A stretch of 64,000 nt of DNA from Nannocystis bainbridge (GCF_028368995.1 NZ_JAQNDL010000002.1:1824001-1888000), one strand, 5' to 3'; shown: positions 5,584 to 61,348, counted from the first letter of the stretch. Notes: generated by a model from the sequence alone, not told the origin. Translations and numbers: made by a program.

Positions 5584-6711
5584 GTGTCGGATCCGCTGAA
5601 ACAAAAGTACGGGAGCAGGGCGCAGGTCCTGCTCCCGCTTTGTCTTGTGGCGTTCGTGGCCCTGAGCGCCTGGCGCCTCTGGCCTTCGGGACAGGTCGCG
5701 CGAACGCCCGCGGGCGCGCCCGCAGCCGCCTCCACGAGCGGCCCGACGCACGTGGTCTCGGGCCCGACGATGGGCACCACGTGGCGCGTCACCGTGGTCC
5801 ATGAGGGCCGCGACCCGGCGCCGATCCTGCCGATGATCGAGGCCGAGCTGGCGCAGATCGATCGAGAGATGTCGACCTGGCGCGACGACTCCGCGATCAG
5901 CGAGTTCAACCGCCGCACCGAGACGTCTGCCTTCCCGGCCCCCGCCGCGCTGGTCGAGGTCGTCGCCCAGGCCCGCGACGTCAGCGAGCGCAGCGGCGGC
6001 GCCTTCGACGTCACCGTCTCGCCGCTGGTCGACGCCTGGGGCTTCGGCCGTCCCGGCCCCGTCGCCGCCCCGCCGACCGACGAGCAGCTCGCGGCCCTGC
6101 GCGCCCAGGTCGGCTGGCAGTCGCTGCACGCCGACCGCGAGGCCGCCACGCTGCGCAAGGACCAGCCCGCGCTCACGATCACGCTCTCGGCCATCGCCCC
6201 CGGCTACGCGGCCGACGTCCTGTCCGACCGCCTCGTCGCGCTCGGCTTCCCCCGCCACCTCGTCGACGTCGGCGGCGAGTTCCGGGCCCGCGGCGACGGC
6301 CCCGAGGGCCCGTGGCGCCTCGGCATCGAGCGCCCCGACGGCCCTACGGATGAGCGCGTCGTGCAAGAGGTCGTGCCGTTGCGCGACGCCGCGCTCGCCA
6401 CGAGCGGCGACTACCGCAACTACCGCGAGCAAGCCGGTCGACGGATCTCGCACACCATCGACCCACGCAGCGGCCGTCCGATCGATCACAAGCTGGCCTC
6501 GGTCACGGTCATCCACCGCACGGCCGCGCTCGCCGACGCGTACGCCACCGCGCTCAACGTCCTCGGCCCCGAAGACGGCTTCGCCCTCGCCGAGCGCGAG
6601 GCCCTGCCGGCCCTGTTCCTCGTGCGCGAGGGCGACGGCTTCGCCGCCCGCGCCACGGCGGCCTTCGCGGCCTTGCGCGGGGCCCCCCCGTCCGCCACCC
6701 TGAGTCCCTGA
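5584..6711 (+). CDS. apbE: FAD:protein FMN transferase (ApbE family)
   Basis: TMGTTWRV, GGAFDVTVSPLVDAWGFG, ATSGDYRNY, SHTIDPRSG, ADAYATAL; follows nqrF. Confidence 0.93.
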   Translation: MSDPLKQKYGSRAQVLLPLCLVAFVALSAWRLWPSGQVARTPAGAPAAASTSGPTHVVSGPTMGTTWRVTVVHEGRDPAPILPMIEAELAQIDREMSTWRDDSAISEFNRRTETSAFPAPAALVEVVAQARDVSERSGGAFDVTVSPLVDAWGFGRPGPVAAPPTDEQLAALRAQVGWQSLHADREAATLRKDQPALTITLSAIAPGYAADVLSDRLVALGFPRHLVDVGGEFRARGDGPEGPWRLGIERPDGPTDERVVQEVVPLRDAALATSGDYRNYREQAGRRISHTIDPRSGRPIDHKLASVTVIHRTAALADAYATALNVLGPEDGFALAEREALPALFLVREGDGFAARATAAFAALRGAPPSATLSP

Positions 6712-6712
6712 C

Positions 6713-6886
6713 ATGACCACGATCGTGCTCACCATCGCCGTCCTCGCGGCCGTCATGCTCGGCATGGCCGTCGGCGCCATCTTCGCCGGCAAGTACCTCA
6801 AGGGCTCGTGCGGCGGCCTCGCCAACGGCAGCTGCGAGTGCACCGACACCCAGCGGCGCGACTGCTCGACCCGCCCCGCCGCCTGA
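6713..6886 (+). CDS. nqrM: NqrM/DUF539-family Na+-NQR maturation protein (57 aa, missing from ORF track)
   Basis: Hand translation: MTTIVLTIAVLAAVMLGMAVGAIFAGKYLKGSCGGLANGSCECTDTQRRDCSTRPAA*. One TM helix followed by KGSCGGL and three more Cys; starts 1 nt after the apbE stop. Confidence 0.88.
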   Translation: MTTIVLTIAVLAAVMLGMAVGAIFAGKYLKGSCGGLANGSCECTDTQRRDCSTRPAA

Positions 6887-6888
6887 GC

Positions 6889-6944
6889 CGTCCCTCGGGA
6901 CATGTCCCCTGCGACATGTCCTTCATCACCTGCTCTATCCGACA
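6889..6944. repeat. Phased array of 14-bp TGTCC-N4-GGACA-like palindromes (4 units)
   Basis: cgtccctcgggaca|tgtcccctgcgaca|tgtccttcatcacc|tgctctatccgaca, directly after the nqrM stop. Confidence 0.85.
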
Positions 6945-8299: not shown

Positions 8300-9643
8300 T
8301 CATCTCACCCGCGCCAGCAGCTCGACCAGTTGCCCGCTGAGCATCCGGTACAGCGCCGCCGCCTCGCCCTCCAGCGCCGCCTCGTGGCGCGTCAGCGCTG
8401 CCCGGTCGCCGCGCGCCGCCGGCCCTGACACCCCGCGCGGGATCCCCAGCGCCAGCAGGTTCTCGAGCGCCGAGCGCAGCAGCTCCCCGACCGCGTGCGT
8501 CGCCATCGGCCCTGGCAGCCCCAGCGAGCGCATCGTCGCCGCCGACAGCTCCGCCAGCACCGCCACGTGGTTGCCCGCCAGCGCGCACGCGGCGTGGTAG
8601 CGCGTGCGCTGCTCTGCCGTCAGCCCTTGCAGATCCAGGTGGCCCTGCGGGCCGATCCAGCGCAACGCCACCGCGCGCGCCTCCGGGTCCCCCTCGATCC
8701 CGAACACGCACGAGCCCAGGCGCCCCTGCGGTCGCTCGCGGCGCAGGCTGCAGATCGGGTGCAGCGTCCCGACCGGGTGGCCCGCCGCCGCCGCCGCCGC
8801 CAGCCCTTCGCGCGCCACCACGGCCCCGGCCGCGTGCAGCACCGGCACCCGCGGCGCCGCGCGGGCCACCAGCGCCGCCGCCATCGCCCCCAGCTGACCA
8901 TCCTGTCCCAACAGCCAGATCGCGTCGGGTGTCCCTTCGGGCAGCTCACCTGTCCCGTCGACCAGCCCGCGCCCCGACCCCGTCGCCGTCGACCAGCCGC
9001 GCTCGCGCAGCCACGGCTCGGCGTGGGCCGCCACGTTGCTTCGACCGAACAGCCACACATGGCCGACGTGACCGACCTGCAGCCGGCGCAGCACCGCCGC
9101 CGGCACCGCCATCGTCAGGGCTTCCTGCGCCGCAGGATCATCGCCCGCCGCCAGCCAAGCGCGCACCGCCGTGCTGCTGATCTCCGGCAGCGCGCAGTCC
9201 TCGGCGTCGGCGAACCCGACCCGCGGCACCACGATCGGCGAGAACTCCGCCGCGATCTCGGCCGCCCGGTGCCAGCGCTGCAGCTCTCCGCGCACGACGA
9301 TGTCCGAACCGACCACCAGCCGCACCGCGTACCCCGGGTGCTCCTCCGCCACTGTGCGCAGCAGGTCGTAGCTGTAGCTCGGCCCCTCGCCGCGCCGCGC
9401 CGCCAGCCGCGCCTCGACGTCGCTGACCTCGACCGTCTCGGCCTGGGCCGCCATCGCCAGGCGCGTCAGCGCCAGCCGCTCGGCGAACGGCATCATCGAC
9501 TTGGCGAACGGGTGCGACCAGCACGGCGCCACCAACACCCGATCCGCCAGCCCGCGCGCCAGCAGATAGGTCGGGATCAGCGCGTGTCCGAGGTGCGGCG
9601 GATCGAAGCTGCCGCCGAGGACGGCGAGGACGGGACGCTGCAT
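8300..9643 (-). CDS. nadD: Nicotinate-nucleotide adenylyltransferase NadD fused to a Rossmann-like/DUF2520 domain
   Basis: N-terminal GGSFDPPHLGH and ISSTAVR. C-terminal HPICS, YHAACALAGNH and SGPAARGD...RH are typical of DUF2520. Confidence 0.85.
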   Translation of the reverse strand: MQRPVLAVLGGSFDPPHLGHALIPTYLLARGLADRVLVAPCWSHPFAKSMMPFAERLALTRLAMAAQAETVEVSDVEARLAARRGEGPSYSYDLLRTVAEEHPGYAVRLVVGSDIVVRGELQRWHRAAEIAAEFSPIVVPRVGFADAEDCALPEISSTAVRAWLAAGDDPAAQEALTMAVPAAVLRRLQVGHVGHVWLFGRSNVAAHAEPWLRERGWSTATGSGRGLVDGTGELPEGTPDAIWLLGQDGQLGAMAAALVARAAPRVPVLHAAGAVVAREGLAAAAAAGHPVGTLHPICSLRRERPQGRLGSCVFGIEGDPEARAVALRWIGPQGHLDLQGLTAEQRTRYHAACALAGNHVAVLAELSAATMRSLGLPGPMATHAVGELLRSALENLLALGIPRGVSGPAARGDRAALTRHEAALEGEAAALYRMLSGQLVELLARVR

Positions 9644-9704: not shown

Positions 9705-10925
9705 TCACTCCGGGTACAGCAAGAATTCGCGGCGGCGGGCCACGAACGCCGCGCGCTGCGGCTCCTGGCTCGCCGTCATCTCCGCCAGCGACGTCTGCGC
9801 CTCGATCGCCGCGCGCAGCCACGGCCCGCCGGCCAGCAGATCGATCGCCGGACGATCGGCCACGAACTCGTACGGCTCCGTGCGCCAGCGCATCGCCCCC
9901 TGTCCCAAGCGCCAGGTCGCGCGCAGCACCGCCCAGCTGGTGCGCAGCGAGCGGACCGCCGCCGGCTCGCGCACGTGCAGCTGGACCCCGCCGCAGCGGC
10001 GCCCGGCGAACTTCTGGAACATCGGCTTGAACCCGAGCGGCCGCACTTGCAGCCCCGGCAGCGCCGCGTCGTCCTCTTGCAGCGCCGCCGCCAGCGCCTG
10101 CCCGTCGAGCCACGGCGCGCCGAAGATCTCGAACGGCCGGGTCGTTCCGCGGCCCTCGCTGAGGTTCGTGCCCTCGAGCAGGCACTGCCCCGGATACACC
10201 AGCGCCGCGCCCATCGTCGGCATGTTCGGCGACGGCAGCACCCACGGCAGACCTGTCTCGAAGAACAGCATCGATCGCGCCCAGCCCGCGCACTGCAGCA
10301 CCTCGAGCCGCTCGCACCCGACCCGCCCGCGCTCGAGCATCGCCATGCGCGCCAGCTCGCCGAGCGTCATCCCGTGACGGACCGCCACGTCGTGCAGCCC
10401 GACGAAGCTCTCCTCGTTGGCCGCGATCGCGCCGCCCTCGACGAGATCGGGCGACCCGCCGAGCGGGTTCGGCCGGTCGAGGATCAGCACCCGCAGCCCC
10501 GCCTGCAGCGCCACCTCGGCGGCCAGCACTGCCGTCCACACGTACGTGTAGTAGCGGCTGCCGATGTCCTGCAGATCGATCACCAGCCACGCCGCCCCGT
10601 GGAACATCTCCGGCGTCGGGCTCAGGCTGGCGAACGTCTCGCCGTACAGGCTGTACGCCGGGACCGCCGCCCGCGGCGCCTCGCCGGCCACCACCTCCAT
10701 GTCCTGCGCCGCCGCGTCGAGCCCGTGCTCCGGGCCCAGCAGGCTGACCACGCGCGCCCCGATCCGGGCCATCACCGCCGTCGCGTGCTCGAGCTCCGCC
10801 GTCACCGACGCCGGGTGGCACAGCAGCGCCACCGGCACCTCGCGCAGCCGCGGACCCTCGCCGGCGGCCAGGCGATCGAGCCCCGTCTTCACCGCGGGCG
10901 CGCGGCCACCTGACCCTTCAGACAT
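9705..10925 (-). CDS. namZ: Exo-beta-N-acetylmuramidase NamZ (DUF1343)
   Basis: VKTGLDRL, GPEHG, DLQDIGSRYYTY, DRPNPLGG, RHGMTLGELA, PSPNMPT, LSEGRGTTRPFE. ATG at 10925. Confidence 0.9.
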   Translation of the reverse strand: MSEGSGGRAPAVKTGLDRLAAGEGPRLREVPVALLCHPASVTAELEHATAVMARIGARVVSLLGPEHGLDAAAQDMEVVAGEAPRAAVPAYSLYGETFASLSPTPEMFHGAAWLVIDLQDIGSRYYTYVWTAVLAAEVALQAGLRVLILDRPNPLGGSPDLVEGGAIAANEESFVGLHDVAVRHGMTLGELARMAMLERGRVGCERLEVLQCAGWARSMLFFETGLPWVLPSPNMPTMGAALVYPGQCLLEGTNLSEGRGTTRPFEIFGAPWLDGQALAAALQEDDAALPGLQVRPLGFKPMFQKFAGRRCGGVQLHVREPAAVRSLRTSWAVLRATWRLGQGAMRWRTEPYEFVADRPAIDLLAGGPWLRAAIEAQTSLAEMTASQEPQRAAFVARRREFLLYPE

Positions 10926-13410: not shown

Positions 13411-16068
13411 GTGCAGTCGGGATCACAGCCGCCCGTCCCACCCGCCGGCACCGCTGCCGACGACGCTGCCCCTTCGCGCCCTGCCGGCTCCGCAGGGGCA
13501 GCACCTCCGGTCCCCCCGCCGCCGCCGGCTCCACCGCGGCGCTCGGGGCCCGCGGGTCCGTCGCCGGTCGCTGCCGGCGCTCGGCTGTGGGTCACCAACC
13601 CGGCCCGCGCCGGCCTGTTCGGCTGGCTCGTGCGCTACTACCTGTTCGCGGCCGCGTGCGTCGCCGTGGCTCTGGGTTACTTCGGCGTGCGGGTCTACCG
13701 GGCCTATGACGCCGCCCTGCCCGACATCGCCGACGTCGAGCGCTACGACGCCCTCGCGCCGGGTGTCACGCGGATCTTCGCCGTCGACGGCAGCGTCCTC
13801 GCCGAGCTCGCGCGCGAGCACCGGGCCTACGCCCCGATCGACGAGATCCCCGACCGCCTGATCCAGGCCTTCCTCTCCGTCGAGGACCGCCGCTTCTTCA
13901 CCCACGCCGGCCTCGACTGGCGCGGTCTGGCGCGGGCGACCCTCGCCAACCTGCGCTCGGGCACCGTCATCCAGGGCGGCAGCACGATCACCCAGCAGGT
14001 CGCCAAGGGCTTCCTCAGCGACGAGCGCACCCTCGATCGCAAGCTGCGCGAGGCGCTGCTGTCGCTGCGGATCGAGGGTCGCCTCGGCAAGTGGCGGATC
14101 CTCGAGATCTACCTCAACAAGATCTTCCTCGGTCACGGCGCCTACGGCGTCGCTGCCGCCGCCAGCCGCTATTTCGGCAAGGAGCTGCACGAGCTCACCC
14201 TCGCCGAGGCCGCGCTGATCGCCGGCCTCGCGCGCGCCCCCTCGCGCTACAGCCCGCTCGCCAGCCCCGAGCGCGCGCTCAAGCGGCGCTCCGTCGTCCT
14301 CCAGGACATGGTCGAAGCCGGCGCCATCACGCCGGCCGAGCGCGACGCCGCCGACGACGAGCCGCTCAAGCTGGCCGCCGCGCCGCCCGACGTGTTCCGC
14401 CTGCGCGCCCCTTATTACGCCGAGCACGTGCGACGTGAGGCCGGCCTCCGCTTCGGCGACGCCGCCGTGCTGCAGGACGGCCTGCAAATCGAGACCGCCG
14501 CCCAGATCGACATGGGCGCCCAGGCCCACGCCGCCATCGACTCGGCGCTGCGGCGCATCGATCGCCGCCAGGGCTGGCGCGGCCCAGTCGCTCACCTGTC
14601 CGATGAGACAGCCCGCGCCACCCTGCTCGAGCGCACCGGCGACGAGTACGGCGACGACGCCATGACCGCCGACCCGCAGCGCTGGCGCCTCGCCCTCGTC
14701 ACCGAGGTCAACGCCAAGCAGGCCAGGGTCCGCGTCGGCAAGGTCGAGGCCCTGCTGCCGCTGAAGAAGATGGCCTGGGCCTCGCGCTACGACCGCAACA
14801 CCGGCGTCAACGACGTCAAGATCACCCGCGTCGACGAGGCCATCGAGGCCGGCGACGTCGTGTGGGTGCGGCCGGCGCAGAAGCGGCGCAGCGTCATCGC
14901 CGAGATCGACGACGAGGCCGCCGCCGCCGAGAGCGCCGCGAGTGAATCCGGCGACACCTCCGCTGGCTCCGCCGCGCTCGAGCCGCCCGACGAGGCCACC
15001 GGCCTGCTGCTGGTCGAGCTCGGGCAGATGCCGCGGGTCGAGGCGTCCCTCTACACCATGGCCCACGACACCGGCGAGGTCGAGGCGATGGAGGGCGGGC
15101 TCGACTACGACCGCTCGCAGTTCAACCGCACCACCCAGGCCTGCCGCCAGCCCGGCAGCGTGTTCAAGGCCATCTACTACGCCCTCGCGCTCGACGGCGG
15201 CCACTACAACATGGGCTCGGTGCTCGAGGACAAGCCCTACGTGCCCGAGCCCGGCGAGATGTGGAGCCCGCAGAACATCGGCCAGACGCTCGACGGCAAG
15301 GTCCTGCTGCGCACCGCGCTGATCAAGTCGCTCAACCTGCCCTCGATCCGCCTGTTCGTCAGCCTCGGCGCCGACAAGGTCGTCCCGTGGGCGCGCCGGC
15401 TCGGCTTCACCACCGAGCTCATCGCCGACCGCGCGCTGTCGCTGGGCGCCTCGTGCGTGCGCACCGACGAGCTCTCGCGGGCCTTCTCGATCTTCGTCCG
15501 CGGCGGCTCGTGGATCGACCCGATCTACATCCGCCGCGTGATCGACAAGCGCGGCCAGACCCTGCTCGACCAGCGCCACCCGCTCGACGCCGGCGTCGAC
15601 GTCGCCGGCCGCCTCGACCGCATGGCCGCCCTCGCCGTGCACGGCCCGCGCCAGGTCGTCGACGACCGCACCGCCTTCCTCATCACCCGCCTCATGCGCG
15701 AGGTCGTGACCGCCGGCATCGGCGGCCGCGCCTCGCAGATCGGCGTGCCCGCCGGCGGCAAGTCGGGCACCGCGTCGAAGAACGCCTACACCACCGACAC
15801 CTGGTTCGTCGGCTTCACCTCGCGCCACATGACCGCGGCGTGGATGGGCGACGACACCTACGAGCGCTCGCTCGGCGACGAGGACGCCAGCTACACCACG
15901 GCGACCCCGATGTGGACGCAGTTCATGGCCGGGGTGGTCGCCGGGATCCCGCACGAGAACCTGCCGATGAACCGACCCCCGGGCATCAGCAGCCGCAACG
16001 TCGACGCCCGCACCGGCGAAGAGCCGATGGCCGGCATGCCGTCGGCGACGCTCTACTTCAAGGACTGA
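13411..16068 (+). CDS. mrcA: Penicillin-binding protein 1A (class A PBP)
   Basis: Transglycosylase motifs EDRRFFTH, GGSTITQQ, RKLRE, LEIYLN; transpeptidase motifs SVFK, SLN, KSGT. Start uncertain. Confidence 0.92.
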   Translation: MQSGSQPPVPPAGTAADDAAPSRPAGSAGAAPPVPPPPPAPPRRSGPAGPSPVAAGARLWVTNPARAGLFGWLVRYYLFAAACVAVALGYFGVRVYRAYDAALPDIADVERYDALAPGVTRIFAVDGSVLAELAREHRAYAPIDEIPDRLIQAFLSVEDRRFFTHAGLDWRGLARATLANLRSGTVIQGGSTITQQVAKGFLSDERTLDRKLREALLSLRIEGRLGKWRILEIYLNKIFLGHGAYGVAAAASRYFGKELHELTLAEAALIAGLARAPSRYSPLASPERALKRRSVVLQDMVEAGAITPAERDAADDEPLKLAAAPPDVFRLRAPYYAEHVRREAGLRFGDAAVLQDGLQIETAAQIDMGAQAHAAIDSALRRIDRRQGWRGPVAHLSDETARATLLERTGDEYGDDAMTADPQRWRLALVTEVNAKQARVRVGKVEALLPLKKMAWASRYDRNTGVNDVKITRVDEAIEAGDVVWVRPAQKRRSVIAEIDDEAAAAESAASESGDTSAGSAALEPPDEATGLLLVELGQMPRVEASLYTMAHDTGEVEAMEGGLDYDRSQFNRTTQACRQPGSVFKAIYYALALDGGHYNMGSVLEDKPYVPEPGEMWSPQNIGQTLDGKVLLRTALIKSLNLPSIRLFVSLGADKVVPWARRLGFTTELIADRALSLGASCVRTDELSRAFSIFVRGGSWIDPIYIRRVIDKRGQTLLDQRHPLDAGVDVAGRLDRMAALAVHGPRQVVDDRTAFLITRLMREVVTAGIGGRASQIGVPAGGKSGTASKNAYTTDTWFVGFTSRHMTAAWMGDDTYERSLGDEDASYTTATPMWTQFMAGVVAGIPHENLPMNRPPGISSRNVDARTGEEPMAGMPSATLYFKD

Positions 16069-16070
16069 CC

Positions 16071-16140
16071 GGTCCCTTCGGACATGCCCTCTCGGGCATG
16101 TCCGGGAGAGCATGTCCGAGAGAGCATGCTCCGTCGGACA
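16071..16140. repeat. 14-bp palindrome array (5 units)
   Basis: ggtcccttcggaca|tgccctctcgggca|tgtccgggagagca|tgtccgagagagca|tgctccgtcggaca, 2 nt after the PBP1A stop. Confidence 0.9.
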
Positions 16141-16775
16141 GGTCATGGCGCCGTCGCTCACGGGACGAGCGGCCCGGTGGGTGCGGTGCCACCATTCCGT
16201 TTCGGTGCGCCAGCGCCGAATGCATCGAGACGCAGCGTGACCGCGGTTCGGCAATGCATGCACTGCGATTTTTGCGCTTCCGGGCCGCCTTCGTCGCAGA
16301 GGCTTCATGCCCCCGGCACCTACACCTGCGTGTCGCACCGACTGAGCCCAGCAAGCGCCCAAAAAGGCGAAAATCTCCCCACCCGACTGGCGCCGCCCAC
16401 GGAACCAAGGGGGTTCCCGGGTGGTTCCGAATCTCCCGGATGCATCCTGGGGTCCCTGTGACCCTCTCCTCGTTCGCGCGCTGGGAGCCACGCACTCGCC
16501 GAAATCATCGTTCGCTGGCCCCATGGTGGCAGAGTCGATGAATCGACGGATCTGGCCACTCGATCCCGCGACGGTGCGCATGGAATCCGTCCTACCGCGG
16601 CGATAGAGCCGTCTCGTTGCGATCGGACACGTCGCGGTCGAAGGCCGTGCTGCACGAGGTGGTTGTGGTCGAGGTCATCGCGGTCGTTGCTCGCATGGCG
16701 GTCGCCTTCAGACTTGCCGACGACGCCGCCCGCACCTGAGCGACCCGGCGTCGGAGCTGGAGAGTCGAGACCACC

Positions 16776-17405
16776 ATGCTATTCAACCAGACGAGTATCC
16801 TCCTCGCGTCGTTGACCGTCGCGTTCGCCATCCCCTTCATCGAGCCGACGTGCGACCTCGGACCGCACGATCCGGGGAAGTGCCACGACCGGCACGACTG
16901 CGAAGACGACGAGGTCTGCGTCGACTACAAGTGCGAGCCCGAGAAGGAGTGTTACAAAAACGCCGACTGCGACAACGACGAGAAGTGCGTCGACGGCGAG
17001 TGCGAGCCCGACAAGGACAAGGAGTGCTGGAAGGACGACGACTGCGACAAGGGCGAGAAGTGCGTCGACGGCGAGTGCGAGCCCGACAAGGACAAGGAGT
17101 GCTGGAAGGACGACGACTGCGACAAGGGCGAGAAGTGCGTCGACGGCGAGTGCGAGCCCGACAAGGACAAGGAGTGCTGGAAGGACGACGACTGCGACAA
17201 GGGCGAGAAGTGCGTCGACGGCGAGTGCGAGCCCGACAAGGACAAGGAGTGCTGGAAGGACGACGACTGCGACAAGGGCGAGAAGTGCGTCGACGGCGAG
17301 TGCGAGCCCGACAAGGACAAGGAGTGCTGGAAGGACGACGACTGCGACAAGGGCGAGAAGTGCATCAACGGCGACTGCAAATATACGAAGGACTGCCGAA
17401 TCTGA
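16776..17405 (+). CDS. Secreted Cys-rich repeat protein
   Basis: Signal-like N-terminus followed by 25-aa repeats ECWKDDDCDKGEKCVDGECEPDKDK. Confidence 0.85.
   Translation: MLFNQTSILLASLTVAFAIPFIEPTCDLGPHDPGKCHDRHDCEDDEVCVDYKCEPEKECYKNADCDNDEKCVDGECEPDKDKECWKDDDCDKGEKCVDGECEPDKDKECWKDDDCDKGEKCVDGECEPDKDKECWKDDDCDKGEKCVDGECEPDKDKECWKDDDCDKGEKCVDGECEPDKDKECWKDDDCDKGEKCINGDCKYTKDCRI
17022..17378 (+). repeat. Intragenic 75-bp near-perfect tandem repeat (about 4.7 copies)
   Basis: gagtgctggaaggacgacgactgc... recurs at 17022, 17097, 17172, 17247 and 17322. Confidence 0.95.
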
Positions 17406-17583
17406 CAGCCGATGCGCCCGCTCTTTCTGACGAGCCCGGGAGCGGCGGTTCGTGTCGGAATCATTGTTCGTTCAGCCCGACGCCGTGCCCGCCAGTTCGG
17501 GCGCGGCGGCGTCCGCTCGCCTCAGACGGTCCGGGAATCGCTGCGCCCCGCCCTGCCGACGATGCTCGCCAGCCGACCGATCC

Positions 17584-17625
17584 TGTCGCATCGCACATGT
17601 CCGATGCGACATGTCCTCACGGCCT
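17584..17625. repeat. 14-bp palindrome array (3 units)
   Basis: tgtcgcatcgcaca|tgtccgatgcgaca|tgtcctcacggcct. Confidence 0.8.
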
Positions 17626-17701
17626 TCTTCGTTCGCGGCCCGGTACTGGCCGGGCCTCGCCGTGCCGGACCGGCGAGCGCCGGCCCGCGGCGCGAGCTCG
17701 C

Positions 17702-18451: not shown

Positions 18452-18565
18452 GGCCCCGCCAGGGTAGGCCACGCGCGCCGTCGAGCCAAGCACCGCGGCG
18501 CTTGTGAAGATCGCGGCTTCGAGGCTACGCTCGCGGGCGAGAGGCCGCCATGTGGGCCGAGGCTC

Positions 18566-18642
18566 GAGCACTTCGCCCAGTCTGGTAGGGCATTTGATTT
18601 CGGATCAAAGGGTCGCGGGTTCAAATCCCGTACTGTTCACCA
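18566..18642 (+). tRNA. tRNA-Arg (anticodon UCG), atypical
   Basis: Cloverleaf: acceptor GAGCACT/ACTGTTC, D-arm GCCC-AGTCTGGTA-GGGC, anticodon arm TTTGA-TTTCGGA-TCAAA, T-arm GCGGG-TTCAAAT-CCCGT, encoded ACCA end. Confidence 0.85.
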
Positions 18643-19852: not shown

Positions 19853-19870
19853 CCCCGGCCCGGCGACGCG

Positions 19871-19993: not shown

Positions 19994-20030
19994 TTTCGCC
20001 TCGGCCTGAGTCCGGGCGCGCGTCCCGTGC

Positions 20031-48016: not shown

Positions 48017-49181
<1,165 letters not shown>

Positions 49182-51247: not shown

Positions 51248-52720
51248 ATGTGGACCCCGCCCGCCAAGATCCGCCACGCGATCCCGCCGGCGCGCTGGCC
51301 GAGCGCCGCGGAGGCGGCCGCCAGCCGGTGGTTTTCGCCGATCGACGTCGGCCCCTGTCGGCTGCACGCGCGCACCTGGGTCCCGGCGATGGTGCCGTGG
51401 CGGGCCTCCGACGACGGCCGCGTCACGCCCGACGTGATCGCCTGGTACGCGCGCTTCGCCGCCGGCGAGCCGGGCGCGCTGGTGGTCGAGGCCACGGGGA
51501 TCCGCGACGTCCCGAGCGGCCCCTTGCTGCGGATCGGCGACGACCGCTTCGTCGCCGGCCTGGCCGACCTGGTCGCCGCCGTGCGCGAGGCCAGCGGCGG
51601 CCGCACGCGCCTGTTCATCCAGCTGATCGATTTCCTCGCGGTCAAGCGCCGCCCCGCGCCCGACAAGTTCTTCGCCCGCTTCTTGCGCGTCGACGCCGGC
51701 CACCGCGAGCGCCTCGCCGCCGCCCTCGCCGACGACCGCTGGCTGGCCGCGCCCGAGGCCGAGCTGCGCGCGTTTCTCCTGGCTGCCGAGACAGGTCTCT
51801 TGGAGCAGGTCCTCACGGACAGGGAGCGACGCGAGCTCGAGTTCGGCTACCGCGAGCTGGTGACCGACCTCGACCTGCCGCACGTGCGCGACCTGCCGCG
51901 GGTGCTGCCCGAGCTGTTCGCCGCGGCGGCTGCGCGGGCCGAGGCCGCCGGGTTCGACGGCGTCGAGCTGCACTACGCCCACGCCTACACGATGGCGAGC
52001 TTCCTCTCGCGCACCAACACCCGCGCTGACGGCTACGGCGGCACGCTCGCGGGTCGCGCTCGCCTGCCGCTCGAGGTGCTCGCGGCCGTGCGCGCGCGCG
52101 TCGGCGCCGGCACAGCGGTCGGCTGCCGCATGCTCGGCGACGAGGTCATCGCCGGCGGCAGCGACCTCGCCGACGCGGTCCAGTTCGCCCGCGACTTCGC
52201 GGCCGCCGGCATGGATTTCGTGAGCGTGTCCAAGGGCGGCAAGTTCGACGACGCCCACCCGCCCAAGGTCGGCGAGGCCGTCTACCCCTACACCGGCCCG
52301 AGCGGCTACGAGTGCATGCCCACGGTCCACAGCGACGCGCGCGGCCCGTTCGCGCGCAACGTCCCGCTCGCCGCCGCCATCCGGGCCGCCATCCGGGCCG
52401 ACGGCCGGATCACCCCCGTGGTCGCTGCCGGCGGGATCCACGAGTTCGGCCAGGCCGAGGCGATCCTCGCCGCCGGCGACGCCGACATCGTCGCCGCCGC
52501 CCGCCAGAGCCTCGCCGACCCCGACTGGTTTTTAAAGGTTCGCGAGGGCCGCGGCGCCGAGGTCCGCCGCTGCAAGTTCACCAACTACTGCGAGGCGCTC
52601 GACACCCAGCACAAGCAGGTCACCTGCCAGCTGTGGGACCGCGTCGAGCTCGACGAGCCCGGCCTGACCCGCTCGCACGACGGCAAGCGCCGGCTGGTCG
52701 CCCCGACCTGGCGGCGCTGA
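51248..52720 (+). CDS. NADH:flavin oxidoreductase (OYE-like)
   Basis: VPAM, VEATG, AGFDGVELHYAHAY, NTRADGYGG, ARQSLADPDW, C-terminal CKFTNYC...C. Confidence 0.88.
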   Translation: MWTPPAKIRHAIPPARWPSAAEAAASRWFSPIDVGPCRLHARTWVPAMVPWRASDDGRVTPDVIAWYARFAAGEPGALVVEATGIRDVPSGPLLRIGDDRFVAGLADLVAAVREASGGRTRLFIQLIDFLAVKRRPAPDKFFARFLRVDAGHRERLAAALADDRWLAAPEAELRAFLLAAETGLLEQVLTDRERRELEFGYRELVTDLDLPHVRDLPRVLPELFAAAAARAEAAGFDGVELHYAHAYTMASFLSRTNTRADGYGGTLAGRARLPLEVLAAVRARVGAGTAVGCRMLGDEVIAGGSDLADAVQFARDFAAAGMDFVSVSKGGKFDDAHPPKVGEAVYPYTGPSGYECMPTVHSDARGPFARNVPLAAAIRAAIRADGRITPVVAAGGIHEFGQAEAILAAGDADIVAAARQSLADPDWFLKVREGRGAEVRRCKFTNYCEALDTQHKQVTCQLWDRVELDEPGLTRSHDGKRRLVAPTWRR

Positions 52721-52866
52721 CCTGGCGCAGCGGACATGTCGCAAAGGACATTCCTGGAGCGCCAGCCCGGGCTGCCCCGCACGCCGCGAGGACCGGCTGG
52801 TCGCCCCGACGTGGCGGCGATGACCTGGCGCATCGGACATGCCGCAAAGGACATGCCCTGGAGCGC
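52690..52866. repeat. Approx. 74-bp direct duplication of the gene 3' end plus 14-bp array
   Basis: ccggctggtcgccccgac.tggcggcg.tgacctggcgca.cggacatg.cgcaaaggaca at 52690 and 52793. Confidence 0.85.
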
Positions 52867-52953
52867 ATGTCCGGTTCGACATGTCGTGAAGGACATCGAA
52901 CTTCGCAGGTCCGTGCTCTCGGAGGCTTCCTCGCGGACATGTCCTGAGCCTCG
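52826..52953. repeat. 14-bp palindrome arrays (5 + 2 units; 3 more at 52723-52764)
   Basis: tggcgcatcggaca|tgccgcaaaggaca|tgccctggagcgca|tgtccggttcgaca|tgtcgtgaaggaca ... cttcctcgcggaca|tgtcctgagcctcg. Confidence 0.88.
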
Positions 52954-52961: not shown

Positions 52962-54056
52962 TCACCCGCGGCGGGCGATCCGCGACTCGGGCGTGCCGGG
53001 GCCGATCGTGAACAGCGCCAGCGTCAGCTGACAGCCATCGGCGCTGACGGCCACCGGGCAGGTCACGAAGCCGGGCACGCGCAGCTGGGCGCTGCGGGTG
53101 ACGCCCTGCCAGGGGGCGTCCAGGCCGTCGCGTTCGGCGAACCACACCCCCGCGCGGCCGTCGTTGGGATCGCCGAAGCCGCCGCCCTCGCTGTCGAACG
53201 CGCCGAAGAACAGCCGCAGCCCGTCGGGCGCCAGCGCCGGACAGGCGAGCACGCCGAAGCCCGGGTCGGCCGGCGTCACCTCGACCGGCGCCACGTCGGG
53301 GAAGCTCGGGTGCACCTGCGGATCGCGGGCGACCTGCCAGAACTTGAAGCCGAGCTGGAACTGCCCCCACGCCGGCCCGTCGTCGCGCTGGAACAGCAGC
53401 GTCGCGCCGTCGGCGGTCGGGTTGGGGTGGCTCTCGACCCGATTGCCGAACGCCAGCGCCCCGCCCGCGACCGTCGGTACGCCCCACCCGTCGCCGTCGC
53501 GCGGCAGCACGTAGATGTCGCCGTTGCCGCCGAAGAACAGCTCCTGCGTGGCGGCGACGAACGCGGGGTGATCGGCCTCGAACGACGACGACGGCCACAC
53601 CGACGCCCCGGCCGGGAACGCCACCGCCGGGTCGTCGCGGACCGAGCGGACCACGTGCCACTGGCCGCCCAGGAACGCCCGCCAGTGCAGCGTCTCGGCG
53701 TCGGGCGACAGCATCGGCGAGCTGCCCGGCGGGTCGAGCCCCAGCGACTCGACCGCCCAGTCCTCGACCCCGAGGCCCCAGCAGCCGACCGGAGCGCCGG
53801 TCGTCTCGGTGGTCCCCGAGGACATGTCCGGAAGGACACCCGTGGTCGAAGACGAGGTCGTCGGCGAGCTCGTGCTCGCGTCGGTCGTGCCCGTCGGCGC
53901 CGATGTCGATGTCGTCGTCGTCGAGGTCGTCGTCGACGACGCCGTGGTCGCGCCGCCCGAGCCGCCGCCGGTCCCGCCTTCGCCGTCGAAGGCCGGGTTC
54001 TGTCGCAGGCAGCCAGCCACCAGCGCCGCCGCCGTCATCGCCCACGCGCGCCGCAT
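52962..54056 (-). CDS. Lipoprotein with Thr-rich linker and PD40/TolB-like beta-propeller
   Basis: Lipobox VAGC; repeats PMLSPDAETL, PNPTADGATL, PALAPDGLRL, VAVSADGCQL. Confidence 0.75.
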   Translation of the reverse strand: MRRAWAMTAAALVAGCLRQNPAFDGEGGTGGGSGGATTASSTTTSTTTTSTSAPTGTTDASTSSPTTSSSTTGVLPDMSSGTTETTGAPVGCWGLGVEDWAVESLGLDPPGSSPMLSPDAETLHWRAFLGGQWHVVRSVRDDPAVAFPAGASVWPSSSFEADHPAFVAATQELFFGGNGDIYVLPRDGDGWGVPTVAGGALAFGNRVESHPNPTADGATLLFQRDDGPAWGQFQLGFKFWQVARDPQVHPSFPDVAPVEVTPADPGFGVLACPALAPDGLRLFFGAFDSEGGGFGDPNDGRAGVWFAERDGLDAPWQGVTRSAQLRVPGFVTCPVAVSADGCQLTLALFTIGPGTPESRIARRG

Positions 54057-56769: not shown

Positions 56770-58236
56770 GTGACCCCCCTCGCCGGTGCCCTCTTCGCAG
56801 CCACGTGCCTCGCCGCGCGAGCGTCGGGCCTCGCCTCGTCGTGGGCGCAAGAACCTGTCTCGAAGGACAGCGAGCTCGCGCCCGAGCTGACGCCGCCGAG
56901 CGATGTGGCGCCGCCGAGCGGGCCGCTCAAGTCGGACGCCGCGGTCGGTGGGGGCCCCGAGCCGACCCCTGTGCCTGCGGCCGCGCTGCCGCCCGCCACC
57001 GTGCCCGAGGGCGCGCGCCCGGACACCATGATGACGCCGGCCGGTCCGGCGCCGAACCTGCCGCCGCGTGAGCGCGTGCGCTGGGGCTGGTTGACCCACC
57101 CGCTGTCGCCGACGCCGAGCCAGTATCAGATCCGCAAGGGCCAGAGCCCGCACCGCGTGCTGCCGCTGCCGAGCGTGCGCTCCCAGCCCGGCGTCGGCCT
57201 CATGCTCGGCGCCAACATCTCGTACGCCTATCGCCGCAAAGAGGGCGACCCCAACCGCATCTACATGATCTTCGAGTCGCGGGTGTCGCTGAAGAAGGTC
57301 CAGGACCACAGCTTCTTCATCCGCCTGCGCGATCTCCTGCGCCGCGAAGAGGTGTTCGAGTTCGGCGTGCTCGGCTACGTCGACCCCGTGTTCCCGTACT
57401 ACGGGATCGGCAACAACAACAACCTCGAGGGCATCGACCTCCAGGCTCGCTACTACCAGGCCCACCTCAACACCGTCGGCGGCTCGCTGACCTACCAGCA
57501 CCCGCTGTGGCGCCTGCAGGCCCTCGGCGACAAGCCGCCGGGGATGCTGCGCTCGTACGCCGGCCTGGCCTACTACGCCGACCGCGTGCGCACCTACGAC
57601 AACTCGCTGCTGCAGGCCGAGAACCCGGCCGCCGACCTCAGCGCCCGCCGTGGCCTCATCCGCCTCGGCCTGACGTGGGACCGCCGCGACAACGAGTGGA
57701 GCCCCGGCAAGGGCAGCCTGTTCGACGTCATCGTCGACAACGCGGGCCCGTGGACCGGCTCGACCGACGCGTGGGGCCGGCTGTCGGCCAACTTCCGCAC
57801 CTACTGGACGCTCGGCGTGGACAAGCTGGTGCTGGCCCACCGCCTGAGCTTCGACGCGCTGTGGGGCGACGCGCCGCTGGTCCCGCTCGGCGAGTTCGGC
57901 GGGCTGCTGACCACCGACGGCCTCGGCGGGGCGTCGGCCGGCCGCGGCTGGATGCGGCGCCGCTACATCGGCCGCCTGAAGGCGTTCGGCAGCCTCGAGC
58001 TGCGCTTCGAACCGCTCGAGCTGAAGGTCCGCCGCCACACGCTGGGCATCGGCCTCAAGGGCTTCGTCGATCTGGGCGTGGTGGCCGACCGCATGCAAGA
58101 CCTGCCGAAGCACTGGCATGTGTCCGGAGGGACCGGTCTGCAGGTGATCTGGGACCAGTTCGCGGTGCTGCGGCTCGACGCCGGCTTCTCGCGCGAGAGC
58201 TTCGGCATCTACTTCATCAACGAGCACGCGTTCTGA
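56770..58236 (+). CDS. BamA/TamA (Omp85) family outer-membrane protein
   Basis: WDRRDNEWSPGKG, GRGWMRRRY, LELRF, FVDLG, LRLDAG, terminal F; no POTRA domain evident. Confidence 0.8.
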   Translation: MTPLAGALFAATCLAARASGLASSWAQEPVSKDSELAPELTPPSDVAPPSGPLKSDAAVGGGPEPTPVPAAALPPATVPEGARPDTMMTPAGPAPNLPPRERVRWGWLTHPLSPTPSQYQIRKGQSPHRVLPLPSVRSQPGVGLMLGANISYAYRRKEGDPNRIYMIFESRVSLKKVQDHSFFIRLRDLLRREEVFEFGVLGYVDPVFPYYGIGNNNNLEGIDLQARYYQAHLNTVGGSLTYQHPLWRLQALGDKPPGMLRSYAGLAYYADRVRTYDNSLLQAENPAADLSARRGLIRLGLTWDRRDNEWSPGKGSLFDVIVDNAGPWTGSTDAWGRLSANFRTYWTLGVDKLVLAHRLSFDALWGDAPLVPLGEFGGLLTTDGLGGASAGRGWMRRRYIGRLKAFGSLELRFEPLELKVRRHTLGIGLKGFVDLGVVADRMQDLPKHWHVSGGTGLQVIWDQFAVLRLDAGFSRESFGIYFINEHAF

Positions 58237-58469: not shown

Positions 58470-58483
58470 TGTCCTTGCGGACA
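58470..58483. repeat. Single consensus 14-bp palindrome
   Basis: tgtccttgcggaca. Confidence 0.7.
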
Positions 58484-58490
58484 GCTTCGC

Positions 58491-59726
58491 TCAATCGGCG
58501 TCGCCGGCTTCGGGCTCGGCCTTGGCGTCGTCGCCGGCGGGCGCGGGGCCGCGGGCCTTCATCTCGATGGGCGGGTGGCCGGCCGGCATCTCGCTCGGGT
58601 TGACCACGGCCGGGCGCTTGGGGCCGCGCGGGTCGGGGCCGAGCAGCTCCTCCATCTTGTTCTGGACCTTGTACTTGGCCAGCAGCGCGTCCTTCAGCTC
58701 GCGGCGGCCCTGGTGGAGCTTGCGCTGGCTGAGGCGCTCCTTGATCTGGTCGGCGAGCGCCTCCTTGGGCAGGTCGCCGGGCGGGTACTTGGCCAGGATC
58801 TTGATGATGTGGATGCCGAACTTGGTCTCGACGGGCTTCGAGATCTCGCCGGGCTTGAGCTTGAAGGCCGCGACGCTGAACTCCTCGACCATGCGGTCCT
58901 TGGTGAAGATGCCGAGGTCACCGCCCTTGTCGGCGCTGGGGCCGACCGAGTTCTCCTTGGCCAGCTGCGTGAAGTCGGCGCCCGCTGCGGTGGCCTTCTT
59001 GTAAAGCTCGTCGGCCTTGGCCACCGCCTCCTTGCGCCACTTGTCCTTGTCCTCCTGCGACGGCTCGGGCGGCTTCTCGCCCATCGGCGTCGGCTGCTCC
59101 TGCGGCCCGATCGGGATCAGGATGTGCGCGGCGTGGATCCGCTCGCCCTCCGACTTGTAGTTGGGCTTGATCTTCTCGTACTCCTCGTCGACCTCGGCGC
59201 TGGTGACCTCCAGCTTGCCGTCCTTCTCGAGGAACTGCTGCTCGAGGATCTCGGCCACGTACATGTCGCGGAGGCTCTGCTCGGTCTCGCCGCGGCGCTG
59301 CAGGTGCTTGTCCCAGTCCTTGATGCCCTGCTTCTGCTGGGTCTCGCGCTCGGCAAGCTTGGCAGCGTCGGCCTCGACGCCGCGGGCCTTGGCCTCCTGG
59401 CGCAGGATCTCGTTGTAGACCAGGCGCTCGGTGATCGACTTGCGATAGCGCCGGTCGGCCGACGGCGGGATCTCGCGGCCGCGGTCGGTGTACTTCTTCA
59501 CCTTGAGGTCGTAGATGTCCTTGAACTGGGCCAGCGGGATCGCGACCTCGTTGACGGTGGCGATGACTTCCGGAAGCGCCGGCAGGCCCTCGCCCGCGGC
59601 GGCCTTGGTCGGCTGCTCCGGGGCGGCCTTCTCGTCGGTCTTCTGCGGCGTGGGCGTGCTCGGCGAGCAGCCGACGGCGAGGGCGAGACAAAGTCCGAGG
59701 GACACGCGAGGGACGAAGCGAAGCAT
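58491..59726 (-). CDS. PpiC-type peptidyl-prolyl isomerase lipoprotein (SurA/PrsA-like)
   Basis: Lipobox AVGC, IHAAHILI, FTQLAKENS, KGGDLG, PVETKFGIHIIK. Confidence 0.92.
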   Translation of the reverse strand: MLRFVPRVSLGLCLALAVGCSPSTPTPQKTDEKAAPEQPTKAAAGEGLPALPEVIATVNEVAIPLAQFKDIYDLKVKKYTDRGREIPPSADRRYRKSITERLVYNEILRQEAKARGVEADAAKLAERETQQKQGIKDWDKHLQRRGETEQSLRDMYVAEILEQQFLEKDGKLEVTSAEVDEEYEKIKPNYKSEGERIHAAHILIPIGPQEQPTPMGEKPPEPSQEDKDKWRKEAVAKADELYKKATAAGADFTQLAKENSVGPSADKGGDLGIFTKDRMVEEFSVAAFKLKPGEISKPVETKFGIHIIKILAKYPPGDLPKEALADQIKERLSQRKLHQGRRELKDALLAKYKVQNKMEELLGPDPRGPKRPAVVNPSEMPAGHPPIEMKARGPAPAGDDAKAEPEAGDAD

Positions 59727-59953
59727 TCTGTTCTCCTGGCCGAAGCGAAGCGGGCTGAGCCCGTGCAGACCGGTCGCCGCATTCGCGCGGCGACCGCAGG
59801 GCGTCGGCGGCGCGAGATTGTAAGCCGGAGCGAGCGTCCGATCCAAGCGGCGACAAGCGCGGCCCCCCCGGCGCAACGGACCCGCCCCCCGGAGACCGCG
59901 CGTGAGCCTCCCCCGCGGCGCCTGCGGCGATTTTCGCGTAGCATCCCGCGCCC

Positions 59954-61348
59954 ATGACCCGCCTGGTCCAGATCCGCGGCACGAGGACGGCGCCGGAGCC
60001 GCCCATGACCGCGCAGGAGCTGCCCGCCACGTCGGAGCTCCCCGGAGTCGCCGGGCCGCGCGTCTACGTCGAGACCCTCGGCTGCCAGATGAACGAGGCC
60101 GACTCTTCGCTCATCGTCGGCCAGCTGGCGGCCCGCGGCTACGTGCGCGTGCCCGATCCGGCGACCGCCGACGTGATCCTGCTCAACACCTGCGCGGTCC
60201 GGGAAAAGGCCGAGGAGCGGGTCTACGGGCGCACCAGCCAGCTGCTGCGGCACAAGAAGGACAATCCGGATCTGGTGTTCGGCATTACCGGGTGCATGGC
60301 CGAGCACCTGCGCGACAAGGTCCAGAAGCAGGCGCCGCACATCGGCCTGGTCGCCGGCCCCGACAGCTACCGCCGGATCGGCAGCCTGGTCGACCGCGCG
60401 CGCGCCGGGGAGCGCGTCGTCGACGTCGCCCTCGACCGCGAGGAGACCTACGACGGCCTCGACGGGGTGCCCGACGACGACGGCGTCAGCGGTCAGGTCA
60501 CGATCCAGCGCGGCTGCGACAAGTTCTGCACGTTCTGCGTGGTCCCGTACACCCGCGGCCGCGAGCGCGGCGTGGCCCCGCGCGAGGTCCTGCGCCAGGC
60601 CAGGCAGCTGGCCGAGCGCGGTTACAAAGAGATCGTCCTGCTCGGCCAGACGGTCAACTCGTACGTGTGGGAGGACGCGAGCTTCGCCGACCTGCTGCGG
60701 GCGATCGCGGCGCTCGATGGGATCGAGCGGATCCGCTTCACGAGCCCCTACCCCGTCGACTTCACCGACCCGCTGATCGCGACGATGGCCGAGCTCGAGA
60801 AGGTGTGCCCGTACATCCACCTGCCGGCGCAGTCCGGCTCGGATCGGATGCTGACGGCGATGAAGCGCGGCTACTCGCGCGGCGAGTTCGTCGATCTGGT
60901 CGGCCGCCTGCGCGCCGCCATGCCCGACCTGGCGCTGTCGACCGATCTGATGGTCGGCTTCTGCGGCGAGACCGAAGAGGATCACGCCGAGACGCTGTCG
61001 CTGATGCGCGAGGTCCGGTTCGACTCGGCGTTCATGTTCCGCTACAGCGACCGCGGGATCACCTACGCCGCCCGCAAGCTGCAGGACGACGTGCCCGACG
61101 AGGTCAAGGGCCGCCGCCTGCAAGAGGTCATCGAGCTGCAGGAGCAGCACACCCGCGCGTCGCACCACGCCCGCGTCGGCAAGCGCGAGCGCGTGCTCAT
61201 CAGCGGCCTGTCCCACCGCGGCGACCGGGTGCTCGGCCGCACGCCCCGGTTCCAGAGCGTGCTGCTGCCCCTCGGGACAGGTTCTCCGGGACAGACGATC
61301 GAGGTCGCCATCTCGGCGACGACGGGCCACTCGCTCATCGCCAGCTGA
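59954..61348 (+). CDS. miaB: tRNA-2-methylthio-N6-dimethylallyladenosine synthase
   Basis: TLGCQMNEADS, LNTCAVREKAE, GCDKFCTFCVVPYTRG, HLPAQSGS, C-terminal TRAM. Confidence 0.95.
   Translation: MTRLVQIRGTRTAPEPPMTAQELPATSELPGVAGPRVYVETLGCQMNEADSSLIVGQLAARGYVRVPDPATADVILLNTCAVREKAEERVYGRTSQLLRHKKDNPDLVFGITGCMAEHLRDKVQKQAPHIGLVAGPDSYRRIGSLVDRARAGERVVDVALDREETYDGLDGVPDDDGVSGQVTIQRGCDKFCTFCVVPYTRGRERGVAPREVLRQARQLAERGYKEIVLLGQTVNSYVWEDASFADLLRAIAALDGIERIRFTSPYPVDFTDPLIATMAELEKVCPYIHLPAQSGSDRMLTAMKRGYSRGEFVDLVGRLRAAMPDLALSTDLMVGFCGETEEDHAETLSLMREVRFDSAFMFRYSDRGITYAARKLQDDVPDEVKGRRLQEVIELQEQHTRASHHARVGKRERVLISGLSHRGDRVLGRTPRFQSVLLPLGTGSPGQTIEVAISATTGHSLIAS

Follow-up and report, generated by a model that had tools for sequence, protein, structure and literature searches.

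A palindromic dyad within and between genes

The window analysed here is the whole stretch of 64,000 nucleotides at G000:C3:1824001–1888000, G000 being the genome of the soil bacterium Nannocystis bainbridge (11.05 Mb, five contigs, 71.5% GC). It carries many copies of a two-part palindrome, TGTCC-N4-GGACA (the dyad), found as single sites inside genes and as tandem arrays between them. An earlier note, made from the sequence alone, had drawn attention to the copies lying inside genes. The dyad is real and far above chance in both the window and the genome: the window contains 10 exact copies for 0.08 ± 0.31 expected from 100 dinucleotide shuffles, and two copies of CTGTCC-N4-GGACAG for 0.00 in the shuffles. 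Genome-wide, we counted 1,987 exact dyads. The distance separating TGTCC from GGACA shows a sharp peak at 9 nt (1,987 pairs for a background of about 10), and no 8-mer exceeds its expectation from base composition more than GACATGTC, which does so 30-fold.

The dyad is preceded by A in 52% of the copies and by C in 43%, mirrored by T or G on the other side, and the N4 spacer tends towards YYRR. Across the genome, CATG-to-CATG distances peak at 14, 28, 42 and 56 bp (3,736, 2,073, 1,586 and 751 pairs, respectively, versus a background of about 60–480). Given this A/C preference and this 14-bp period, the unit proposed in the earlier note is correct, namely CMTGTCC-N4-GGACAKG, with neighbouring units overlapping by 4 bp (the shared CATG). 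The copies present in the window are listed below; mismatches are scored against the 10 specified bases of TGTCC-N4-GGACA, and the relatives are five syntenic genus-mates.

5680–5693: single dyad TGGCC-TTCG-GGACA, one mismatch; N-terminal part of the ApbE open reading frame (ORF) 5584–6711, outside the shorter gene call; kept in 5/5 relatives
6889–6944: intergenic array, four units, directly past a gene end
8930–8943: single dyad, one mismatch; inter-domain linker of the cytidylyltransferase-like/DUF2520 gene 8300–9643, minus strand; identical mismatch in 5/5 relatives, spacer variable
10254–10267: weak dyad, two mismatches; NamZ gene 9705–10892, minus strand; 14-mer identical in 5/5 relatives, its ACA codon found in 3/5 other genera too
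14295–14308: single dyad, one mismatch; PBP1A gene
14597–14610: single dyad, one mismatch; PBP1A gene 13630–16068, plus strand
16071–16140: array, five units, beginning 3 nt past the PBP1A stop codon (16066–16068); arrays with different spacers at the equivalent place in relatives G001, G005 and G007
17584–17625: intergenic array, three units
19885–19993: two adjoining intergenic arrays, two and five units, between convergent genes
21798–21825: intergenic array, two units
22575–22602: intergenic array, two units, beginning 2 nt past the gene end at 22573
25362–25389: intergenic array, two units
25578–25647: intergenic array, five units, adjoining the end of gene 25654–26856 (minus strand)
26833–26846: single dyad, one mismatch; near the 5' end of the multihaem cytochrome gene 25654–26856, minus strand; identical in 5/5 relatives
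28249–28262: single dyad, one mismatch; gene 26928–28442, minus strand
29434–29447: exact dyad; gene 28838–30718, plus strand; exact in 5/5 relatives
29602–29615: exact dyad; gene 28838–30718, plus strand; exact in 5/5 relatives
29683–29696: dyad, one mismatch; gene 28838–30718
29949–29962: dyad, one mismatch; gene 28838–30718
30748–30859: two intergenic arrays, three and four units, past the gene end at 30718
34394–34449: array, four units; the stop codon of gene 33839–34396 falls within its first half-site, TGACC
36343–36356: dyad, one mismatch; gene 35182–37998, minus strand
37437–37464: two-unit copy, one and two mismatches; gene 35182–37998
37669–37682: exact dyad; gene 35182–37998
39587–39600: exact dyad; CPxGQxC repeat of the Cys-rich protein 38465–40747, a peptide repeat that may explain it
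44279–44362: array, six units, between convergent genes (ends 44114 and 44378)
48831–48844: weak dyad, two mismatches, with two CATGTC 14 bp apart; PurK linker; by sequence indistinguishable from chance, its AT-rich codons being also present in one outgroup
51808–51821: dyad, one mismatch; Oxidored_FMN gene 51248–52720, plus strand
52723–52895: arrays, two and five units, beginning 3 nt past a stop codon (52718–52720), between convergent genes
53811–53838: two-unit copy, one and zero mismatches; spans the called start of gene 52962–53825, minus strand
56856–56869: single dyad, one mismatch; 36 nt upstream of the called start of an Omp85-family gene, or within ORF 56770–58236; half-sites kept and spacer variable in the five relatives
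58121–58134: dyad, one mismatch; Omp85-family gene; exact in 5/5 relatives
58470–58483: exact single dyad CTGTCC-TTGC-GGACAG, between convergent genes; both half-sites kept in 3/5 relatives (one change in G007; G003 not aligned in register), spacers and flanks differing
61266–61293: two-unit copy, one and two mismatches; TRAM domain of MiaB, codons GGG ACA GGT TCT CCG GGA CAG

The earlier note had listed 18 places inside genes, and its observation stands in part: the motif is indeed in excess, and some of the copies and units were overstated. At the first coordinate of each place, the match is exact in four cases (29434, 29602, 37669 and 39587), carries one mismatch in 11 (5680, 8930, 14597, 26833, 28249, 29949, 37437, 53811, 56856, 58121 and 61266), two mismatches in one (10254) and three in two (48817 and 51780), a better unit being present within each of the last two ranges, at 48831 (two mismatches) and 51808 (one mismatch). 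The supposed three-unit copies go too far, as the additional units at 28263, 28277, 37465 and 51794 carry 4–5 mismatches (four each for the first two). The dyads at 14295, 29683 and 36343 were absent from the list. As for location, 5680 and 56856 lie inside genes only if the longer ORFs 5584–6711 and 56770–58236 are real genes, the second unit of the 53811–53838 copy, at 53825, is just beyond the called gene, and the exact copy at 39587 belongs to a protein whose peptide repeat alone makes many near-matches. Pfam supports the labels ApbE, NamZ, PBP1A, PurK and MiaB and recognises the FMN oxidoreductase, while the gene called nadD encodes the cytidylyltransferase-like protein with DUF2520. That the in-gene copies are a minority of all copies had been missed.

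Excess inside genes at the DNA level

Genes were called with a simple codon log-odds caller, which returned 7,923 genes, or 81.8% of the genome. In 6,981 of them, the interiors (7.76 Mb) contain 648 exact dyads, versus 18.4 ± 4.0 in 20 synonymous-codon shuffles leaving the proteins unchanged, a 35-fold excess; in other words, synonymous shuffling removes 97% of the exact in-gene copies, and the real and shuffled counts are far from equal. No such excess is seen in gene interiors for control motifs whose spacer is N3 or N5, whose arms are swapped or that consist of direct repeats. The genes of the window behave alike, with four exact copies for 0.10 in codon shuffles and 15 copies with at most one mismatch for 4.0, a count reached in none of 500 shuffles. 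At up to two mismatches the figures are 55 and 42.9, so that most two-mismatch matches in window genes are due to chance.

All three codon phases are used by the 648 exact dyads (56, 215 and 377), the commonest one reading GTC and GAC, which are preferred codons. The dyad is nonetheless written against codon bias, as the earlier note had stated: 28.4% of the third positions fixed by the motif are A or T, versus 5.5% genome-wide. In-gene array sizes fall steadily from one unit upwards (1407, 396, 113, 30, 19 and 8). We also observed that the density of in-gene sites rises 2.3-fold with gene length, from 0.168/kb in genes of 300–900 bp to 0.389/kb in genes of 2.4–4 kb.

Conservation, lineage range and origin in place

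Conservation was assessed in five genus-mates syntenic with the window (84–93% identity), to which four 20-kb regions picked for their many in-gene sites were added. The resulting set comprises 68 genes, 88,750 positions and 45 sites with at most one mismatch, the Cys-repeat gene being left out. Of the 170 third codon positions within the motif, 145 show no change in any of the five relatives, compared with invariant proportions of 0.679 over the remainder of these genes, 0.561 in the flanks and 0.40 in the N4 spacer (Fisher tests, 3.4e-7 and 1.4e-11, p-values that overstate the evidence because the relatives are kin). For third positions occupied by A or T, the difference is larger still, 42 of 47 being invariant in the motif (89%) versus 236 of 1,430 elsewhere (16.5%). 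When each site was permuted within the same gene and phase, the observed conservation was reached in 0 of 5,000 trials. Across site–relative pairs, 187 of 224 retain a dyad with at most one mismatch; many one-mismatch sites display the same mismatch in all six genomes, and 15 positions carry a site in a relative and none in G000. Even the first and second codon positions of flanks and spacers are less conserved than the average of the gene, indicating that the sites sit where the protein tolerates change. Altogether, since synonymous shuffling abolishes nearly all in-gene copies, the three phases are used and the third positions are conserved, the constraint appears to act on the DNA word itself rather than on the protein, with the DNA word apparently under selection, in line with what the earlier note had proposed.

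Between genes, position is conserved while sequence turns over. When an intergenic region of G000 has a site, so does its orthologue in 70 of 86 cases; when the G000 region has none, a site is present in the orthologue in 15 of 182. The units themselves cannot be aligned between relatives and vary in number. At one in-gene location, 29683–29696, relative G007 has a 1-base gap within the coding sequence, which may be a frameshift or an assembly error.

The hyper-abundance of the motif is confined to the genus. The extended form CATGTCC-N4-GGACATG is present 369 times in G000, 2–266 times in 10/10 genus-mates, 0–5 times in eight other genera of the family and never in 12 other families. For the 14-mer dyad, the counts are 114–2,090 in the genus (controls, 1–6), 87 and 161 in two sister genera (G011 and G013), 3–5 in six other genera of the family and 0–7 elsewhere. 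The sister-genus counts, which are whole-genome figures to be compared with controls of 10 and 1, represent a modest excess and are ambiguous, half of the sampled G013 dyads (three of six) lying in CPxGQxC repeats. Scans of 200 kb in each of these two genomes revealed neither a 14-bp periodicity nor a comparable dyad, so that a different dialect of the motif in the sister genera is rejected.

How the sites arose inside genes can be seen from NamZ, MiaB and PurK, whose codon alignments with orthologues of five motif-free genera are free of indels at the sites. In MiaB, the genus has PLGTGSPGQ, encoded with rare codons, where the others have PL[DGN]xGxPG[EDN] with G/C-ending codons. By protein identity, the closest named relatives of this MiaB come from metagenome-assembled genomes of Nannocystaceae (70%) and Kofleriaceae (57–59%). 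From the absence of indels, the residue replacements and the rare codons, we conclude that the in-gene sites arose in place, without insertions or deletions.

Placement relative to genes and stop codons

Among the 1,987 exact dyads, 737 lie within called genes and 1,236 outside; with genes making up 81.8% of the genome, the dyad is about 7.5 times denser outside genes. Counting sites with at most one mismatch, the density is 5.45 sites/kb in convergent intergenic regions (59% of which have a site), 1.88 sites/kb in co-directional regions (27%) and 0.64 sites/kb in divergent regions (16%). In co-directional regions, the sites lie near the upstream stop codon. More specifically, the arrays are phased to it: CATG[TC]C starts most often at +12 (108 genes) or +17 (112 genes), with further peaks every 14 nt, and in these two registers the stop codon TGA forms the first three bases of a half-site (TGAcC or TGAca). 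Instances in the window are found at 16066–16140, 34394–34449 and 52718–52750. This phasing may reflect function, or it may result from ORFs ending at the first stop codon that an array offers. Intergenic arrays preferentially contain five or six units (130 and 92 arrays, versus 95 with four units). The spacers and flanks of different copies are unrelated, only 288 of 5,686 array flanks having any similar flank elsewhere, which rules out that the motif is part of a larger repeat.

The earlier note had combined two ideas, a constraint on the DNA word and a site maintained every 1–3 kb; the former is supported and the latter is not. The coefficient of variation (CV) of inter-locus spacing is 1.20, more dispersed than Poisson. 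Random relocation of the in-gene sites gives CVs of 1.18 (local moves) and 1.02 (global moves), which means that the observed spacing does not exceed either null in regularity. Nor do in-gene sites fill gaps between intergenic ones, their median distance to the nearest intergenic site being 1,815, versus 1,822 for random positions in genes.

Symmetry and structure of the repeats

As RNA, the arrays form stable folds (z-scores of −4.7 and −6.7 relative to shuffles), because the 10-mers are self-complementary. We also examined 305 units selected only by their matching neighbours, in which CATG is 88–99% conserved. Mirrored positions in these units do not covary (C-G 57, T-A 55, C-A 54, T-G 52), Watson–Crick pairs being as frequent as expected, and spacer complementarity across arrays is at the chance level (1.59 versus 1.58). 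These two results rule out a hairpin maintained by covariation. One-mismatch variants within genes are symmetric with respect to transcription (112 C>T versus 134 for the mirror change G>A), with no bias towards G-U wobble, and oriented spacers show no strand preference of the tetraloop kind (TTCG 90, CGAA 87). An intrinsic terminator, made of a stem-loop and a U-tract, is ruled out as well, as T counts past the arrays equal those of the mirror side (2.25 versus 2.24 T, n = 1,519; at least five T in 7.0% versus 6.6%). Classical terminators are not enriched (7 versus 4.6 ± 2.2). No Rfam family matches the motif in the window, where the sole Rfam match is a tRNA gene at 18566–18639. Taken together, the mirror symmetry and the lack of covariation weaken a role in RNA, which stays live given the stable folding of the arrays.

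A predicted DNA-binding site and rival readings

Our preferred reading, which we hold tentatively, is that the dyad C[A/C]TGTCC-N4-GGACA[G/T]G is a predicted double-stranded DNA site for a genus-specific, symmetric dimeric DNA-binding protein, probably of the helix-turn-helix type, that would polymerise on the arrays and occupy the single in-gene sites. Such a dimeric reader fits (i) the symmetry of the motif, (ii) its half-sites of 5–7 bp with centres 9 bp apart and a free spacer, (iii) the doubly constrained CATG and (iv) the positional conservation. We infer the binding of the protein, its polymerisation and what these would achieve, as follows. Where units follow head to tail, adjacent dimers would have the central CATG in common, and a short filament would result, typically spanning five or six units (70–84 bp). 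Arrays located at or on stop codons, and commonest between convergent genes, would mark or insulate gene ends, and single dyads elsewhere, including the approximately 650 exact in-gene ones, would each bind one dimer. We propose that the sites were written into coding sequence because they matter to the cell; point substitutions would have created them where the protein tolerates change, and purifying selection would then have kept them against the preference for G/C-ending codons.

Several points weigh against this reading. A search for an extra ParB/Noc paralogue that could act as the reader found one PF02195 match in G000 and in most genus members, the same number as in motif-free genera. 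A self-regulated reader beside the 16 perfect sites in divergent promoter regions is rejected as well, since the neighbouring genes are functionally unrelated and form no pattern (hemerythrin, P450, SDR, STAS, DUF218, PEBP, HupE, one WYL-domain regulator and others). The CV and relocation tests give no signal of regular spacing or chromosome organisation in the genome. The stable folding of the arrays and their location at gene 3' ends and on stop codons would suit a role at the RNA level too, and conservation alone is also compatible with a continuing drive (uptake bias or biased repair), which is a live rival. On the side of method, the start codons given by the gene caller are approximate, and the relatives used for conservation are not independent samples.

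We regard it as unlikely that the motif acts in RNA, the arrays past stop codons forming blocks of 10-bp helices or binding an RNA-binding protein, so as to protect mRNA 3' ends, terminate transcription without a U-tract or couple to translation termination, and the in-gene single sites serving as pause or processing signals. The gradient from convergent through tandem to divergent regions, the proximity to the upstream stop codon, the phasing at +12, +17 and every 14 nt thereafter and the strength of the folding all agree with this possibility, and the absence of any enrichment in classical terminators makes an alternative gene-end signal plausible; it is contradicted by the lack of covariation and of G-U wobble bias, by spacers that have no tetraloop strand preference and complement each other at the chance level, by the missing U-tail, by the full mirror symmetry of the arrays even under transcription in one direction and by the absence of a matching Rfam family. 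Equally improbable, in our view, is a molecular drive devoid of cellular function, in which biased uptake and recombination, or a context-specific mismatch repair, would restore the motif and mimic purifying selection. Such a drive would account for a genus-specific hyper-abundance, for an origin by in-place substitution, for the choice of change-tolerant protein regions, for the depletion of sites in a 200-kb region of lower GC and atypical codon usage (20 sites versus about 110) and for a Cys-repeat gene in which the exact motif sits in different repeats depending on the relative. Strict 14-bp arrays of five or six units at stop codons, however, are not expected from uptake or repair bias, and many one-mismatch sites keep the same mismatch in six genomes without ever being completed. 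Moreover, a similar conservation of the cyanobacterial palindrome HIP1 was taken by Xu et al. as selection rather than replenishment (PMC5861425).

A selfish miniature mobile repeat, inserting and expanding by itself and surviving where it does least harm, is very unlikely. The order of densities, convergent over tandem over divergent, is what least-harm insertion would produce, and unit number does vary among relatives; yet each copy has spacers and flanks unrelated to those of the others, the genome, which is 90.5% complete, yielded no Y1/RAYT transposase, and the in-gene copies lack indels relative to outgroups. A 14-bp unit, besides, cannot insert in frame, and three-unit copies, which could, are not favoured inside genes; the steadily falling in-gene array sizes and the absence of indels in orthologues of other genera rule out the in-frame insertion of 42-bp copies. 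A repeat derived from a miniature inverted-repeat transposable element or an insertion sequence was rejected because the copies have no conserved body or ends. Least probable of all is that peptide motifs or local composition generate the copies incidentally and that the DNA itself carries no signal: the CPxGQxC repeats of 38465–40747 do give many two-mismatch matches and an exact one, the sister-genus dyads fall in such repeats in half of the sampled cases, and two-mismatch matches in window genes are mostly chance, but the protein-preserving shuffles largely refute this explanation. The phase corresponding to the Cys-Pro reading accounts for only 56 of the 648 dyads, and the window stripped of its Cys-repeat gene still has 14 sites for 3.24.

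Relation to known elements

A literature search on the motif, on myxobacterial palindromic repeats and on TGTCC/GGACA operators, which did not extend to supplementary files, returned nothing on this element. The closest known phenomenon is HIP1 (GCGATCGC); repetitive extragenic palindromic (REP) units with their bacterial interspersed mosaic elements (BIME), and uptake sequences, are the other close analogues. PMC5861425 describes HIP1 as a short cyanobacterial palindrome, 15- to 300-fold over-represented within and between ORFs, conserved between genomes and hence read as selected; that paper attributes to it no role in peptides, RNA or gene regulation and no known reader. HIP1 has also been linked to orphan methyltransferases (PMC4390886). 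Our motif resembles HIP1 in its many-fold excess that extends into ORFs (35-fold over codon shuffles) and in a conservation exceeding the background (145/170 versus 0.679). It differs in that HIP1 is a contiguous 8-mer, periodic at 10–90 kb, whereas the motif described here is a two-part 14-bp dyad devoid of regular spacing, which builds 14-bp phased arrays at stop codons, reaches a density about 7.5 times higher outside genes and is confined to one myxobacterial genus.

REP/BIME units lie mostly at gene 3' ends, and the arrays reported here also concentrate past genes; a literature search on REP elements near termination codons found nothing. In PMC2817692, REP/BIME are high-copy extragenic palindromic units that form regularly spaced composite arrays and serve as protein-binding sites. 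The Y1 transposase of the REP-associated tyrosine transposase (RAYT) type (PF01797) had no match in G000 (90.5% complete), while the same search matched 6 of 14 control genomes. Unlike REP/BIME, the motif has 14-bp units with free spacers and no hairpin covariation, and it is not confined to extragenic DNA, since 737 of the 1,987 exact dyads lie in called genes and 648 in gene interiors, with hundreds of conserved copies among those inside genes.

The DNA uptake sequences (DUS) of Neisseria and the uptake signal sequences (USS) of Pasteurellaceae are lineage-specific words present about once per kb, located in genes at tolerant positions and often in inverted pairs past genes; they are oriented, non-palindromic 9–12-mers that do not form phased tandem arrays. 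Lineage specificity and change-tolerant positions are thus common to both cases, whereas the motif is a perfect dyad with a symmetric tolerance of mismatches and 14-bp arrays starting from stop codons. As the motif is its own reverse complement, it cannot show any strand skew, unlike the FtsK orienting polar sequences (KOPS) or Chi.

A further resemblance concerns the LuxR-type regulator CviR, whose site is given as CTGNCCNNNNGGNCAG in PMC10847564. This operator, CTGNCC-N4-GGNCAG, has the same 16-bp architecture as the C-variant of our single sites (43% of copies have C before the dyad), and its N coincides with one of the two most mismatch-tolerant positions of the half-site. CviR, however, controls a small quorum-sensing regulon from promoter sites, while the sites studied here number thousands, lie mostly past genes and in arrays, and are rarest in divergent promoter regions (0.64/kb). 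We therefore take the match as a lead on the fold of the putative reader, and not as a sign of membership in this regulator family.

Regional variation and other repeats

One 200-kb region of the genome, G000:C1:1100000–1300000, contains 20 sites for about 110 predicted from the contig mean of 55.6 per 100 kb. It has a GC content of 68.9%, short genes and atypical codon usage, with 65% called coding by the codon model, and is probably recently acquired DNA. Within the window, a variable segment extends over about 16100–25600, where most of the five relatives lack orthologues of genes 16776–17405, 20031–21464 and 22874–25262; nearly all intergenic gaps of this segment carry an array. Directly past the array at 34394–34449 lies a tandem repeat (34461–34787; unit of 116–121 bp, 2.8 copies), each copy of which starts with ACATGTCCTATCCGACA, a one-mismatch dyad.

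Two Cys-rich repeat proteins are encoded in the window, at 38465–40747 and 16776–17405. The former contains a 75-bp repeat (39647–40387, 9.8 copies) with DUF7107 and Dickkopf_N matches, and a second 75-bp repeat is present at 16960–17378 (5.6 copies). The codons of CPxGQxC (TGC CCN NNN GGC CAG) mimic the motif at two mismatches, and the exact TGT..GGA version sits in different repeats of the Cys-repeat gene in different relatives.

Significance

Hyper-abundant short palindromes of the HIP1 kind have been unexplained for decades. The motif described here has features that are easier to exploit than those of HIP1: its two-part dyad is of the type that dimeric DNA readers recognise, its phasing is strictly 14 bp and its arrays are anchored at stop codons. 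It also has a sharp taxonomic limit (about 2,000 copies in the genus versus 3–5 in six other genera of the family) and a very clean signal of selection inside genes, where A/T third positions are 89% invariant in the motif. With such features, the reader protein should be findable and the function testable by synonymous recoding. In practical terms, conserved DNA signals would be lost whenever genes from these organisms are codon-optimised or recoded; for telling native from recently acquired DNA, the motif is a strong marker.

What the sites might do for the cell can be put in broader terms. It is possible, though we consider it doubtful, that they belong to a bacterial chromatin or boundary system not described before, in which a genus-specific protein would polymerise on stop-codon arrays at about a quarter to half of transcription-unit ends and occupy hundreds of maintained single sites in essential genes, possibly bridging them to the arrays. 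If this is true, the genome would carry a second, DNA-level code over the protein code.

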